DNA of 64,000 nucleotides, taken from contig JAVJNR010000008.1 of assembly GCA_040217195.1 (NCBI GenBank), positions 1-64,000 of the forward strand, written 5' to 3'. A program made the position numbers. Source of the stretch: Leptospiraceae bacterium. GTDB lineage: Bacteria; Spirochaetota; Leptospiria; Leptospirales; Leptonemataceae. This document shows positions 18,701-24,700 of this stretch, piece by piece (position 1 is the stretch's first letter; the number at the start of each line of letters is the position of its first letter).

Positions 18701-21700
18701 TTCACGGTCCTGGAGGTTTTTTTTGTCTTTTTGGCAGAAGCACGTTTGGCTGTAGCCATGGACTAGCTCTTGGATCTAGACTTCTTTCGCTTTTGCGTCT
18801 TCTCCGCATTCACGGTTTCTCGCTCCGGTTCTTCCAGTTCCGGGCTGGAATTTGAAACGGACTTTCTGAACTCTCGAATCCCGGTTCCGAGATCCTTAGC
18901 AAGCTGGGGCAGTTTTCTGCCTCCGAAAAGCAGTAGCACAACCACCAGGATAATCGTCCATTCAACGGGTCCTGGCATTGTCATGAATAATGGTGCCATA
19001 CCGTCGACGCTGCGCCCCGTGCCTTTTTTTACAACTTGAATTTTGACGCGGTGCATTGTTATCTTGCCGTCAACTATGGCGATTTCCAAAGAACAGAAGG
19101 CCCTGTACAACGATAAGGTTCGGCCCTACAAGGATGCCCTGGAGGAACTGAAAAAGGAATCCTCCACGTTGAAGGGTGCAGCTCGAAAGAATGCAGACAT
19201 GGAGCCTTACTTCATGTTCAGAAATGCCATTATCTCTCTTAAAAGCTGCAATTTGATGGTGCAGATGTCCACATTGTCCAATGAGATCCAGAACCTGAAA
19301 AATGACAAACTGGTGGGGGATGCGCGAAAAGAGGTCTCCAATGCACTTAATGAACTGGTCAAGGTGGTGGGGGATCAAATTGATGAGGGGCTAACTGAGA
19401 ATCAGGATCGACTGGAAAAAATCCAGCAAATCAATCCGGCCCGGCGATTGAAGCTACTTCTTGCATTTCGAGAGACAATGCAGAACTTAAAGATAGCCGT
19501 GGGTACAGGAAAATGGCGCTGGTACTTCCCCGAGCTTCATATGAAGCTCACTATCCTGGCCCGAAACCTGATGGACTTCAAACAATACGGTGCGGCCAAA
19601 GATAGCAATGCACCCTACTACAGGGAATTGCAGGAGCATATGCAGTTCCTGGCAGAAGAGGCCCAGACGGCGGCTCAGGATTTTAGATCCAAGTATGAAC
19701 TGGCCAGTCAGGACCTGGCAGATTTGCAATCCATTCAGAAACTTTTTGAGATGTTAAAACGAATCTTTGTTTTTACGGGTAATAAAACCGAACTGGAGAA
19801 GATCCAGATCTCCCTGGACTCGAACAAGGAGCGAATTGAAGCTATTGTTGCAGATCAGAAGAAGGGGACGAAGAAGAAAAAGTAGATGTCGATGGCCCGG
19901 CCCCTTTTTTCTTTTCACCTGACGGGGAAAGGAAGGAATGGCCGCAGCGCAGGCACAGGAGTAGAAAATGGCAGTACAAGCATTATCAGAAGATAAATTT
20001 ACCGAAGAAACAGCTCAGGGAGTGACCCTGGTAGACTTTTGGGCGGAGTGGTGCGGCCCCTGTCGTATGGTAGCGCCCATTGTTGAGGAGCTATCCGGCG
20101 AAATGGAAACCGTTAAGTTTGCAAAGGTAAACGTTGATGAAAACCAGGGTATTGCTCAATCTCTGGGAATTACCGCCATACCAACGCTGGTGCTTTATCG
20201 AGATGGTAAGCCAGTGGACAAAGTGGTTGGACTTCTTCCTAAAGAGCAGCTCAAAGAATTTATCGAAAAGCATATGTAATCTATGCAACATGCCCATAGG
20301 GCGTCGGGAAGCACAGCTTCTGGCAAGAAAGGAGAGGGCAACTTCTCCTTTCTTTTTTGCCCCTGTACCATTCGTAGGGCAAGAGTTGAGCGCATACTCC
20401 GTCATAGCAATGATGTGACCCTGGACTCGCTCGACGGATCTATACTGGAGTGGGGATTTACAGTTTTTGTTTGAGCTGTAACGGGGGGGGACAGAATGGA
20501 ACTACGTTGCTGACTATCGACTAGACTAAGACGCATTTCTGATTCAAAAGAATTTTTCCACACGCACAATGTGAGTGTGATACATCTCCAGACTGGATTC
20601 CAGCTCGGCCACTCCACCATTTTTGATCTGCTGGACCATTTCATCGGTTAGAATTATGTTATGGGTATGTCCGAGAGTGGGCTCCAGGTTAAAGGTCCGG
20701 ATTCCGGATTCAACCTGAGACAATCGGATTTTCACCTCATGCTCATGCCCGGCGGCCGGCTGCACCAGAGCCTCCAGACCTTCCGAATTTCGTTCCCTGT
20801 AGCAGCTTAATATTCCGCTACTCAAGACCGTTAAGAGAAGGGGAAAATAAATTGTGTTCCAGCGCAAGGGGGTTAACATAGCCTTGAGGGAATCTCCCAG
20901 AATGCCCCAGGACCGCAAGTAAAGTAATCCGGCCCGCAGATCCCAGGAAAAACAATAAAATGGCCCGAATCATACTGACAGAACCTTATACAACGCTTCC
21001 TCGTGGCGGTTATCTCATTGAGACCTCCGTAGGATACATACAATTCGGTGCCCCCCCTGAAACCATCAAAGATACCATGCTTCTGCCCCGGAGCACGCCA
21101 CAGATCTTTGTTCTGCCGGGTGAATTCTTTCACGTTGAGAAAGGAATCTCCGTGGCCGAGCTGGAGTTCCCACTATATTATAACTTCTATTTGAGACAAA
21201 AAAAGACCTATGTTGTATGTACAGAGGAGCAGCGTGAGCAGTTTAAAGTAGTTCTTCAAGAATCCGTCTTCGGTCCGGAAGTGGTGGATCTGCGGTCCGA
21301 GTACGTAAACGGTGAAGATACATTTGGGTATCCGGACATGCGAGCGGAGATGGAGCATTTTCGGGGAAATCGGGAACTGGATGACCTGGTTCGGTTTGTA
21401 ATCTTCAAGAATGATAAGGTCCGTTTCAACAATGTTACGATTGAGAAAAAGACCGGTGGAGATTTTGCCATCCAGGATGATGGTCTCAAGAAAAGTATAT
21501 CAGTTCCGGGAGAGGTAGGATATAACATCATTTACGATGCCGGAGAAAGAATGCCGGAACCCTATCAGCCTTCGCTTCTGGGAGTTACCTGTCTGGGGCC
21601 CAGTCATGGATTCGACCCGGATGACAATACGTCCGGTTTTATTCTCTGGATCAATCATCAGGGCATTATGGTGGATCCACCGGTGAACTCAACTGAGTGG

Positions 21701-24700
21701 CTCAGAAAGTCAAACGTCAATCCCAAGCACATAAACTCCATTATTTTAACTCACTGTCATGCAGACCATGATGCCGGTACCTTTCAGAAGATTCTGGAAG
21801 AGGGCAAGATTACCATCTATACCACAGAAACCGTTATCCACTCATTTATTCGAAAATACAATGCACTGACCCGGATCCCCAAGAAGGAGCTTTTTTCTCT
21901 GTTTGATTTCGTGCCTGTTGTAATTGGAAAGAATTACATCATTAACGGCGCCATCTTTCGCTTTAACTATGCATTGCATTCGATTCCCAGTTTGAGTTTC
22001 GAATACCAGTTCCAGGATCAAAGCTTTGTCTACTCCTCGGATCATTTGAACGAGCCAGAAAAGTTTTCGGAGCTTCTGGAAAAAGAAGTACTTACGGAAA
22101 CCAGATATCGCGATTTAAATGATTTTCCCTGGCATTATGATATTATCTATCATGAAGCAGGCATTCCTCCACTGCATACTCGTATCGACTATCTGAATAC
22201 CCTTCCGGTGGAAACACAGAAGAAGGTCACTGTATATCACATTGCGAAAAAAGATATGCCCGCCGATACCGGGATGCGTCTGGCCACCTTTGGGATAGAA
22301 AACACTCTCTATCCTCCGGTGAAACCTCCCCGTCATGAAGTAGCGTATAGAATTCTGGATGTACTTTCCAACGTAGATATATTTAAGGATTTTCCCATAG
22401 CCAAGTCCAAAGAATTTCTTTCCATCGTTGAAGAGGAAACCTTTGAAAGAGGAGAAAAGATCATCGAGAAAGACACTCCAGGCGATAAGTTCTTTATCAT
22501 TGTTGCTGGAAATGTGCGAGTGGAAGGGATGGAGCAGGAATCCGTCAAGGATGATAGTATTTCCAAGCAATATGGCACATACGAATACTTTGGAGAAGCT
22601 TCACTGATTCTGGAACAGCCCAGGAGTGCAGATGTTGTGGCCTCAACAAACGTCAATGCACTGACCATTGAAAAGACCAAGTTCCTAAACTTCATTCGAG
22701 GTTCCGAGCTTCTTGAAAAATTCAAGAGATTGAATGATATCCGTAGAACCGGAACATGGGAAACTCTTTCCCATTCCAGATTTCTCCAGGGAATTACTTC
22801 TGCTCAAAAAACTCAACTGGAGTTAATAATGGAGCAGCGTACCTATCCTGCAGGTACGAGAATCCTGATGAAAGGCGAAATTTGCTACGAAGCATTTATT
22901 GTAAAGCGTGGCGAAGTGAATGTAGTTACAGACGGTGAGGTAATTGAAACCTTGAGCTGGGGAGATTTCTGCGGAGAAATCTACCAGATCCAGAAAGAAG
23001 CTCCTTCCTCTTTCGATTTCATTGCGGTTTCTGAGATTGAGGTGTATCGCATCTCAAGAGAAAACCTGGTGGATTATATCCAGGAAAACCCGGGTGTTTA
23101 TATGCGGCTGCTTCGAATCTATGGTAAGTAGTAAGTAATCTTCCGGCTCATGCTTCAGAGGCGCCTGGTTTTGGCTTCTACGGATAAGAATTACCTTTAG
23201 CTGAACGGAGGAGTCCTCTATTTTCAGACCAATCGGGTAATGAAATCAGGAAAAGGTAACACCAGTTCGAATCGCTCCATGGATGCTCATATTCGCAGTC
23301 TACTTGCATGCAAGAGGTGCGAAAAGATGCAGGGAAAACCGGTGCATGGATGCGTACAGAAAACCAGTATTATTAGCCTGGGGCAGGCCCCAGGAATCCA
23401 TGAAGAAAGATTTGGCAAACCCTTTGCCTATACCGCGGGAAAGACTCTCTTTAAATGGCTTGCAATGGCCGGCATAGAAGAAGAGGACTTTCGGGCCCGG
23501 GTAAACATGTCTGCGGTTTGCAGATGTTTTCCCGGTAAGGCAAAGAACGGCGATCGAAAACCGGACAGGCAGGAAGTGGAAAACTGCATTCCGTATATGG
23601 AATTCGAATTGAAGTATCACAGGCCCGAGCTTGTGATTCCAATAGGTAAACTGGCCATTGATCAAATCCTGGAAAGAGCGATACTTATTTCAGAAGGTTC
23701 TCACTCTTCAAAGCAAAATGACACCGATGGAGGGATTCAAAAGACCGATGAGAAAGATTCCCGAGCCTCAAAGGGTCGAAAAAAAGCTACCGATTCAAAA
23801 GTTAGAAATCAGGAATTAACGGAGGGAGCCCCACCAGCCGCGGTTGTAGGAAAGGCTGGGCAGAGTATTAAGAAAATAGCCCAATTGCAGGCCTATTTAA
23901 ATAGCAAGGGACGCGCCAGTTACAAATTAGATCAAATCATAGGACGAAGATTTAGAAGCGACTGGGCCGGCATTTCCTTCGACTGGATTGCGCTTCCCCA
24001 TCCTTCGGGTCTAAATGTCTGGAATCACACAGAGACAGGAAAGGTTTGCATAAGCAATGCAATTGCTCAAATAAGAAAGCACAATGCCGTTCGAAATACC
24101 TTTCCTCGCTGATCTCTTACTCTTTCAAGTTTATGTTTCATTCATTCCTGCAGAGCGTTTAATTCGCAATTGCTGATTCTAATTGGCTTTTCCTGGAACC
24201 GGCTGCGGTTTTTTGGCGTCCATTAAACTAATAAATCGCAGGAGAAAAAGATGAAAGGAAAATTTGTACTGGTTACAATTCTGATATTCGCATCTTCCGC
24301 AGGACTGATGGCTCAGGATAAATGGGTCAAAGGATCTAACGGAAATGTGGATGGATTCACACTATATGGTGGAACTGAAAATGGAAAGAACCTGTTCCTA
24401 TGCGCAGGATTCATGAACGGTACGTTTCACCCCGGAAAGATTGTAGGTAGTAATTGTAATTTTGGTTACGGTGGAAATGAAGTTGAAGCGAACAGTTACT
24501 TCACTCTTCAGGTTTCCCAGTCCAGCATAAAGAGATACACCTGGCATCGTGCATCCAACGGGCAGGTACCTGCCTTGAATGGTTATGTTCCCATCGAAGT
24601 TGGTCGGGAAGGTAGCAGGATTCTGTATGTATGTAGAGCCAATTACAACGGCGGAGTGCATCCTGGAAAGATTGTAGGAAGTAACTGCAATTTTGGCTGG

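Follow-up and report, generated by a model that had tools for sequence, protein, structure and literature searches.

A predicted cyclic-nucleotide-gated metallo-beta-lactamase-fold phosphodiesterase of the PdeD/PdeE family in Leptospirales

Results

A PdeD-like gene lies downstream of trxA

The window (the whole stretch of DNA analysed, 64,000 nt) contains a stop-free ORF of 723 aa on the forward strand, starting at the same Met as its close homologues. The features considered here are the following, all on the + strand:

19043..19885, +, 280-aa ORF upstream of trxA (context only; found in 23 of 37 loci)
19968..20279, +, trxA, thioredoxin (Pfam Thioredoxin), conserved upstream neighbour (context only)
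20945..20948, +, Shine-Dalgarno-like AGGA, 12-15 nt 5' of the ATG (from sequence; putative function)
20960..23131, +, predicted gene for a cNMP-gated metallo-beta-lactamase (MBL) phosphodiesterase (P0001), 723 aa, without other close copy in the genome
20978..21544, +, N-terminal domain, ~aa 7-195, predicted MBL fold without metal ligands (predicted fold, homologue alignment)
21566..22315, +, catalytic MBL domain, ~aa 203-452 (conservation and fold match)
21752..21772, +, HCHADHD signature, aa 265-271 (sequence)
22337..22744, +, first cNMP-binding domain (CNB-A), ~aa 460-595, with the cassette FGE...PRSA (G545, E546, R555) (homologue conservation)
22745..23119, +, second cNMP-binding domain (CNB-B), ~aa 596-720, degenerate, with S683 where CNB-A has Arg (hhalign register)

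The PdeD-like gene is a core gene of the tig-clpP-clpX-trxA region. Of the 37 loci fetched, 34 include DNA 5' of the gene, and in 26 of these trxA lies there. Its neighbours are housekeeping genes, with no cyclases among them, which counts against the function proposed below. Pfam and NCBIfam profile searches gave no family above cut-off for the 280-aa ORF. Promoter and terminator scans remained at chance level (9 vs 7.2 and 8 vs 6.4, respectively). One RNA run, which contained 5% of the words, gave contigs on trxA and the ORF upstream of it, and none on the PdeD-like gene, a result that speaks neither for nor against its expression. We also considered a mobile or anti-defence origin and rejected it: tblastn found no match to the protein in 50,697 phage or 72,556 plasmid records, the G+C of the gene (0.45-0.47) is near that of the contig (0.486) and synteny is conserved.

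Catalytic domain with an intact metal site

Pfam Lactamase_B matched aa 224-363 with 27.3 bits (cut-off 22.7), and cNMP_binding matched two stretches further downstream (DNA 22436-22699 and 22838-23089), the best being aa 493-580. This is the domain build described in the genome-wide survey's note. Residues H265, H267, D269, H270, H340, D361 and H427 are invariant or conserved in at least 90% of 150 sequences, as is the E399/H406 pair; judging from the alignment, the metal site is intact and keeps all its ligands. The protein reads HCHADHDA at 265-272, where the motif of PdeD and PdeE is HCHADHDS (PMC3188802).

The closest fold of the catalytic domain was that of Apyc1 (7u2r), with a Z-score of 22.8 and an rmsd of 2.4 over 223 residues. 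Apyc1 shares the HxHxDH two-metal site and is a proven phosphodiesterase that cleaves all cNMPs, including cCMP and cUMP (PMC9117128). After it came chains of PhnP, RNase Z, YhfI-like proteins and PqqB at Z 18.7-19.3, so the fold evidence counts partly against cNMP hydrolysis, because the MBL fold is promiscuous. The survey had also reported a match to the Apyc1 family, which our searches did not reproduce: PF23023.1 (cut-off 50 bits) had no match to the protein at E<=0.1 and none in the genome, and a newer version of the model appeared only among precomputed matches on homologues. We therefore rejected membership of that family on the profile result; Apyc1 itself, at ~245 aa, is a homodimer of single-domain chains that stand alone and carry no CNB domains. 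Regarding the label 'class II', it stands as class IIb/PDE-III and fails as class IIa (PdsA, yeast PDE1), given that the motif is not HSHLDH and PF02112 has no match in the protein or the genome; the fold of yeast PDE1 is nevertheless shared (Z 18.0) despite the different motif and profile. Membership of RNase Z was discarded too, with NCBIfam equivalog scores of ~25 bits against cut-offs of 252-416.

The N-terminal domain is predicted to be a second, metal-free MBL fold

The AlphaFold2 model of the 723-aa protein had a mean pLDDT of 92.5 and a pTM of 0.91. When the N-terminal domain was folded alone, all 50 listed matches were MBL-fold chains (best Z 11.1; rmsd 3.4-3.6 over 134-141 residues). 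The domain conserves the motifs PPETIKD and ELEFP (invariants from the 150-sequence alignment), and has no conserved His. Foldseek with this domain gave MBL chains with weak E-values, three of them at E<=0.001, while the whole model returned, among the matches listed, CNB proteins only; by sequence, none of the best 60 of 84 listed solved structures matched outside the CNB domains. When the profiles of the N-terminal and catalytic domains were compared with hhalign, no internal MBL duplication was found (probability 0.2%), so this duplication is seen by predicted structure alone.

Residues 7-454 superposed in one piece on the two tandem MBL folds of long-form RNase Z (ELAC2 8cbl and yeast Trz1 5mtz; 373 and 381 residues, rmsd 4.5 and 4.1), an enzyme whose first MBL domain is inactive. 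In the model, then, the N-terminal region forms a second MBL fold that is metal-free and packs as in long-form RNase Z, which differs in its RNA substrate, its lack of CNB domains and an identity of 11-14%.

CNB-A is conserved and CNB-B is degenerate

G545, E546 and R555 of CNB-A are kept in all 77 close homologues, and the Arg in 60 of 68 distant ones. From this conservation, the phosphate-binding cassette appears intact and CNB-A is likely the activator site. Position 556 is variable, with Ser in 43 of the 77 close homologues, and gives no firm clue to which base CNB-A prefers. The Arg is missing from CNB-B in 77/77 close homologues, and the role of this domain is probably structural. PADLOC matches to the protein fell on the CNB domains only.

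Homology with PdeD and PdeE extends over the full length

Local alignment with the PdeD orthologue of D. citrinum (P0308, 871 aa) gave 29.4% identity over 843 columns, from residues 10-718 of the query to 17-849 of the orthologue and including the N-terminal domain, with a score of 1081, where 100 shuffles reached 62 at most. These values agree with the end-to-end homology noted before, as does the second place of PdeE, whose D. purpureum member (P0264) scored lower (E 1e-86). Identity in the catalytic domain is 43-44% to PdeD orthologues and 42% to PdeE; region by region, identity is higher to PdeD in three of the four. PdeD (GbpA, PDE5), a cGMP-stimulated cGMP phosphodiesterase of class IIb/PDE-III, shares with the spirochaete protein the HCHADHD site, the four-part build and the combination of a canonical CNB-A with a CNB-B devoid of the canonical motif, but carries a ~120-aa insert after residue 109 that the latter lacks. 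PdeE (GbpB, PDE6), a cAMP-stimulated cAMP/cGMP phosphodiesterase, has the same catalytic site, but also a long N-terminal extension and a canonical motif kept in CNB-B.

Cyclic-nucleotide genes of the genome

Profile searches found 46 Guanylate_cyc matches (45 genes in the survey) and 28 cNMP-binding matches in 24 ORFs (23 genes), so the earlier counts hold approximately. A Lys at the base-selecting position marks an adenylyl-type cyclase; it is present in 42 of the 44 scorable cyclases, which by this residue look adenylyl-type, while the other two carry Glu. The 93.7% complete genome gave no CpdA or PDEase_II match. It has no PDEase_I match either, a search that shows little, the control genomes being equally without one. 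The protein had been presented as the likely enzyme that degrades cAMP and cGMP in this organism, a role that may have to be divided: a distant paralogue with a full-length MBL-2xCNB build lies at G000:C8:53752-55914 (hhalign 100%, 662 columns), and the 10 further Lactamase_B_2 matches above cut-off, as well as the six Metallophos matches, could share the phosphodiesterase job.

Spread and phylogeny

The gene is near-universal in Leptospirales (85/85 good genomes) and present in 205 of 401 Spirochaetota, and the family extends to other bacteria and to many protists; the gene can hardly be called rare. Within Spirochaetota, a class III cyclase accompanies the strong match in each of the 205 genomes, and the 52 cyclase-free genomes (35 of them from one genus) all lack the gene. 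The co-occurrence is one-sided and kin-bound, as 144 cyclase-bearing genomes lack it. The family also includes fused forms, with a class I PDE domain in P0192 and two cyclase domains in P0224.

In the tree, family A, which includes PdeD and PdeE, was separated as a single clade from the paralogue family (100/100). The protein had been described as a specific counterpart of PdeD, which the phylogeny contradicts: PdeD lies nearer to proteins of Planctomycetota and Myxococcales than to those of spirochaetes, and the AU test rejected a clade of spirochaetes plus PdeD (p=0.0003, for a grouping chosen after the first tree had been viewed). The spirochaete clade is loosely near PdeE (88/93, not starred). 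Since its proteins are not sister to eukaryotic PdeD, cGMP specificity cannot be transferred to them.

Discussion

Full-length homology and the intact site make a cNMP-gated cNMP phosphodiesterase the most likely function, as had been proposed. Specifically, we favour, with a probability of roughly three in four, a cytoplasmic, two-metal MBL-fold enzyme of the PdeD/PdeE family (class IIb/PDE-III) gated by its substrate. The fold match to Apyc1, the superposition on long-form RNase Z, the CNB-A Arg kept in all close homologues, the cyclase and PDE fusions, the co-occurrence with cyclases, the 42 Lys-bearing cyclases and the missing CpdA and PDEase_II matches also count in its favour. In this genome cAMP is the most likely substrate, and cGMP may be a second one. 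The C-terminal MBL domain would hydrolyse the 3',5'-cyclic phosphate, and the N-terminal one would replace the second subunit of homodimers such as Apyc1 and short RNase Z, leaving a one-chain pseudo-dimer that we infer to be monomeric. As cNMP levels rise, the nucleotide would bind CNB-A and increase activity; the substrate would therefore hasten its own removal and pulses would be shortened. The enzyme had been called product-activated, which does not fit PdeD, whose activator is its own substrate, cGMP, acting at a separate activating site (PMC2113096, PMC11988041).

One could argue that the enzyme has another preference, being cGMP-specific like PdeD or relaxed like Apyc1, or possibly cross-gated, with one nucleotide at CNB-A and another cleaved. 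The regulatory build is that of PdeD and not of PdeE, identity favours PdeD in three of four regions, Apyc1 is the best fold match and two cyclases carry Glu; yet the remaining scorable cyclases look adenylyl-type, the tree does not unite spirochaetes with PdeD, and neither the phage and plasmid searches nor PADLOC, whose matches were limited to the CNB domains, support it. We consider it rather unlikely. A cNMP-switched hydrolase acting on another substrate, either an RNase Z-like nuclease or a 1,2-/2',3'-cyclic phosphate hydrolase, would suit the tandem MBL build, the core-gene location, the weak NCBIfam RNase Z matches and the E399/H406 pair, which we take to resemble the HEAT/HST pair of RNase Z. 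But those matches stop at 25 bits, and only 21 residues separate H340 from D361, the stretch where RNase Z has its tRNA-binding arm, which leaves no space for it. The members that carry a fused cyclase or class I PDE domain and the homologues of known activity, which are cNMP phosphodiesterases (PMC3188802, PMC11988041), further make this reading improbable. Finally, the CNB domains might no longer activate the phosphodiesterase, which would then be constitutive or be inhibited when nucleotide binds. All close family members have a degenerate CNB-B and oomycete members have lost the CNB-A motif, so the family tolerates loss of gating; the invariance of G545, E546 and R555 and the activation by cNMP of both characterised members, PdeD and PdeE (PMC11988041), make such a loss here very improbable.

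The family is already known in databases: RefSeq names Leptospira orthologues (e.g. WP_000910892.1; 58-61% identical, same gene context) 'cAMP/cGMP-dependent 3',5'-cyclic-AMP/GMP phosphodiesterase', a name only, and the surprise is limited because of it. Our literature search found no experimental report on any bacterial member, and key primary papers may mention bacterial homologues. New here are the predicted metal-free N-terminal MBL fold and the separate bacterial lineages from which PdeD and PdeE may stem. Moreover, this bacterial protein, being compact and confidently modelled, is a practical starting point for solving a class IIb structure for the first time. Class III cyclases are numerous in Leptospirales, and a single conserved gene with feedback logic is an obvious candidate for the missing off-switch. 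Work in this order has connected cAMP synthesis with sub-second control of motility (PMC9043183, whose main text mentions no phosphodiesterase) and, through a cyclase mutant, with host fitness (PMC5100919).

PdeD and PdeE are described as amoebozoan enzymes in the papers covered here. The main text of the Acanthamoeba genome paper has no words linking PdeD with Leptospira, and its LGT table holds six Leptospira rows, which we could not tie to the PdeD/PdeE family. As a tentative, rather doubtful scenario, the family would be an old bacterial invention that split early into two subfamilies and was taken up twice by eukaryotes: the PdeD type very early, with present-day holders in Amoebozoa, an apusozoan, stramenopiles and a glaucophyte that sit beside proteins of Planctomycetota and Myxococcales, and the PdeE type in a separate second event. 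Built on a one-chain MBL pseudo-dimer, the enzyme would act in Leptospirales as a universal cAMP off-switch, giving feedback to dozens of cyclases, including those behind the rapid motility response of L. kobayashii to light.

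A PdeD-like gene of a known family

The subject of this analysis is the following gene:
20960-23131, + strand, PdeD-like gene encoding a protein of 723 aa

On this protein, Pfam recognizes Lactamase_B at 224-363 plus two cNMP-binding stretches. Named dictyostelid orthologues were among the homologues retrieved by our search, and the genome-wide survey's claim of end-to-end homology to PdeD was borne out: against P0308, the PdeD orthologue of D. citrinum, the alignment gave 29.4% over 843 columns (query 10-718 versus 17-849), with a score of 1081 compared with at most 62 in 100 shuffles. 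In PMC3188802, PdeD and PdeE of D. purpureum are proteins 98774 and 56777, respectively. Overall, the gene is real and intact, and its predicted product is very likely a cNMP-gated cNMP phosphodiesterase; we give a cAMP-centred, substrate-activated reading of this enzyme roughly three chances in four.

The family was known and named beforehand, and this gene adds another member: in RefSeq, the Leptospira proteins bear the name 'cAMP/cGMP-dependent 3',5'-cyclic-AMP/GMP phosphodiesterase'. Our literature search turned up no publication that describes a member from bacteria, and bacterial homologues may have been mentioned in the papers that first described these enzymes. What goes beyond the routine is the universality in Leptospirales, which are rich in cAMP, a hidden tandem-MBL build and a possible double entry into eukaryotes.

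Catalytic and N-terminal domains

Across 150 aligned sequences, the residues showing no variation are H265, H267, D269, H270, H340, E399, H406 and H427; D361 is conserved in at least 90%. By RNase Z chemistry, we take E399 and H406 to be the acid pair. The predicted model of the full protein is confident (pLDDT 92.5, pTM 0.91), and the best fold match of its residues 206-452 is Apyc1 (Z 22.8, rmsd 2.4 over 223 residues), followed by PhnP, RNase Z and YhfI-like chains with Z around 19 and yeast PDE1 with 18.0. The profile match to the Apyc1 family claimed by the survey could not be reproduced, neither on the protein nor in the genome.

To test whether the N-terminal domain is an inactive second MBL fold, it was folded alone: all 50 structural matches listed were MBL-fold chains (best Z 11.1), and a search for conserved His in this domain found none. 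Within the model of the whole protein, residues 7-454 can be superposed as a single piece on the long-form RNase Z of human (373 residues, rmsd 4.5) and yeast (381 residues, rmsd 4.1). Comparing the profiles of the N-terminal and catalytic domains gave no sequence trace of a repeat, so the N-terminal MBL repeat rests on predicted structure. From this model we infer that a one-chain pseudo-dimer would stand in for the homodimer described for Apyc1 in PMC9117128.

In two homologues, P0202 and P0181, large insertions starting with Cys lie exactly inside the HCHADH metal motif, and another insertion in P0202 matches an intein-splicing family of Pfam and ends in HN-C. The insertions resemble inteins placed within the catalytic domain.

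Regulatory domains

In the first cNMP-binding domain (CNB-A), G545, E546 and R555 are retained in 77/77 close homologues, and 60 of the 68 distant homologues have the Arg; in CNB-B, the Arg is absent at the equivalent position from all 77 close homologues, with the CNB-B register taken from a profile alignment and five rows falling outside both groups. Dictyostelid PdeD likewise has a canonical motif in CNB-A but not in CNB-B, while PdeE, unlike our protein, retains that of CNB-B. The survey had described the enzyme as 'product-activated', which is wrong, since the activator of the Dictyostelium enzyme is its substrate, acting at a separate site and lowering the Km, as stated in PMC2113096.

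The oomycete members P0159, P0347, P0379 and P0382 have lost the FGE...R motif from CNB-A and keep an intact metal site, which suggests that gating has been lost in that lineage.

Link to cyclases

The genome holds 46 class III cyclase matches and 28 cNMP matches spread over 24 ORFs, roughly as the survey had counted (45 cyclase and 23 cNMP-binding genes). Taking Lys versus Glu at the base-selecting position as the rule for base choice, we could score 44 of the 46 cyclase domains, 42 with Lys, which would make them adenylyl-type, and two with Glu. CpdA, PDEase_II and PDEase_I profiles gave no match in this 93.7% complete genome, the PDEase_I search having been run without a positive control. 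Within the family, P0224 is fused to two class III cyclase domains and P0192, a eukaryote-labelled record, to a class I PDE domain. Besides, class III cyclases are present in 205/205 carrier genomes of Spirochaetota, a one-sided link given that the gene is missing from 144 cyclase-bearing genomes and that kin are not independent. The fusions and the co-occurrence are independent links of the family to cNMP turnover.

The only two Glu-bearing domains (G000:C1:916358-916900 and G000:C10:592440-592919, both in this genome) each lie within ~4 kb of cNMP-binding ORFs and are candidate non-adenylyl cyclases.

Distribution and phylogeny

At E<=1e-50, the gene was found in 98 of the 101 genomes of the Leptospirales sample, and in 85/85 of those at least 90% complete. 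Some match was present in 230 of 401 Spirochaetota genomes; in a hand-transcribed tally, 205 of these had a strong match (E<=1e-50) and 25 a weak one. Among representatives clustered at 50% identity, 332 reached E<=1e-30. Named bacterial members are also known from MAGs of Planctomycetota, Myxococcales, Ca. Xenobia and Ca. Eremiobacteraeota, and named eukaryotic ones belong to dictyostelids, protostelids, Thecamonas, Cyanophora, Tribonema, Hondaea and oomycetes.

Trees were built from 395 columns of the N-terminal and catalytic domains and rooted on the paralogue family: a quick one of 89 rows and a careful one (LG+C20) of 47, omitting 42 rows, mostly unnamed or near-duplicates. Sixteen named eukaryotic PdeD-like proteins and two unnamed rows formed one group (99/97), whose sister lineage consisted of four named bacteria (100/96), and the three PdeE-type proteins were placed apart, loosely near spirochaetes (88/93, not starred). 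Two origins of the eukaryotic enzymes are a lead and not a result, because the groups compared by AU test were chosen after seeing the first tree, the branches leading to PdeE and to the outgroup are long, and MAGs may be mislabelled. The AU test rejected both groups, all eukaryotes as a single clade (p=0.016) and spirochaetes with the PdeD clade (p=0.0003).

A second paralogue

The same genome encodes a second candidate, which belongs to a separate bacterial subfamily:
G000:C8:53752-55914 (= L038:7753-9915), + strand, distant paralogue of 720 aa (hhalign 100%, 662 columns, 22% identity)

It has the same four-part build, a HIHDDH motif and Arg in both CNB domains. Across its subfamily, the metal ligands are intact in 105/105 sequences, Asp replaces E399, and the Arg is mostly kept in both CNB domains (103/105 and 85/105). 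Members of this subfamily are present in 25 of the 101 Leptospirales genomes and in other phyla, and the records examined name it only 'cyclic nucleotide-binding domain-containing protein', not phosphodiesterase.

Locus and neighbours

The closest named loci are 95-96% identical, from MAGs labelled Leptonemataceae, Leptospiraceae or Spirochaetaceae. The gene is preceded by tig-clpP-clpX, tatC/tatA, a 280-aa ORF without known function and trxA. Of 37 loci fetched, three start inside the gene; in the other 34, which have upstream DNA, trxA precedes the gene 26 times. Phage and plasmid records searched with the gene gave no match; it behaves as chromosomal and vertically inherited.

Other features of the window are:
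11678-12364, - strand, stand-alone cNMP-binding protein whose FGE...PRTA motif is intact
16462-17400, - strand, 312-aa ORF inserted after clpX, no family match
19043-19885, + strand, ORF for the 280-aa protein, helical-looking, no named family
20544-20918, - strand, small ORF lying divergently between trxA and the PdeD-like gene; its product has three HxH motifs and a signal resembling that of lipoproteins

The cNMP-binding ORF adjoins a tRNA-like sequence ~9 kb upstream of the PdeD-like gene. The small divergent ORF, without match in Pfam and NCBIfam searches, is present in 10 of the related loci L001-L011 and in none beyond; its product is possibly metal-binding. The 312-aa ORF was seen in only 2/37 related loci, and the 280-aa ORF accompanies trxA and the PdeD-like gene across Leptospirales in 23 of the 37.
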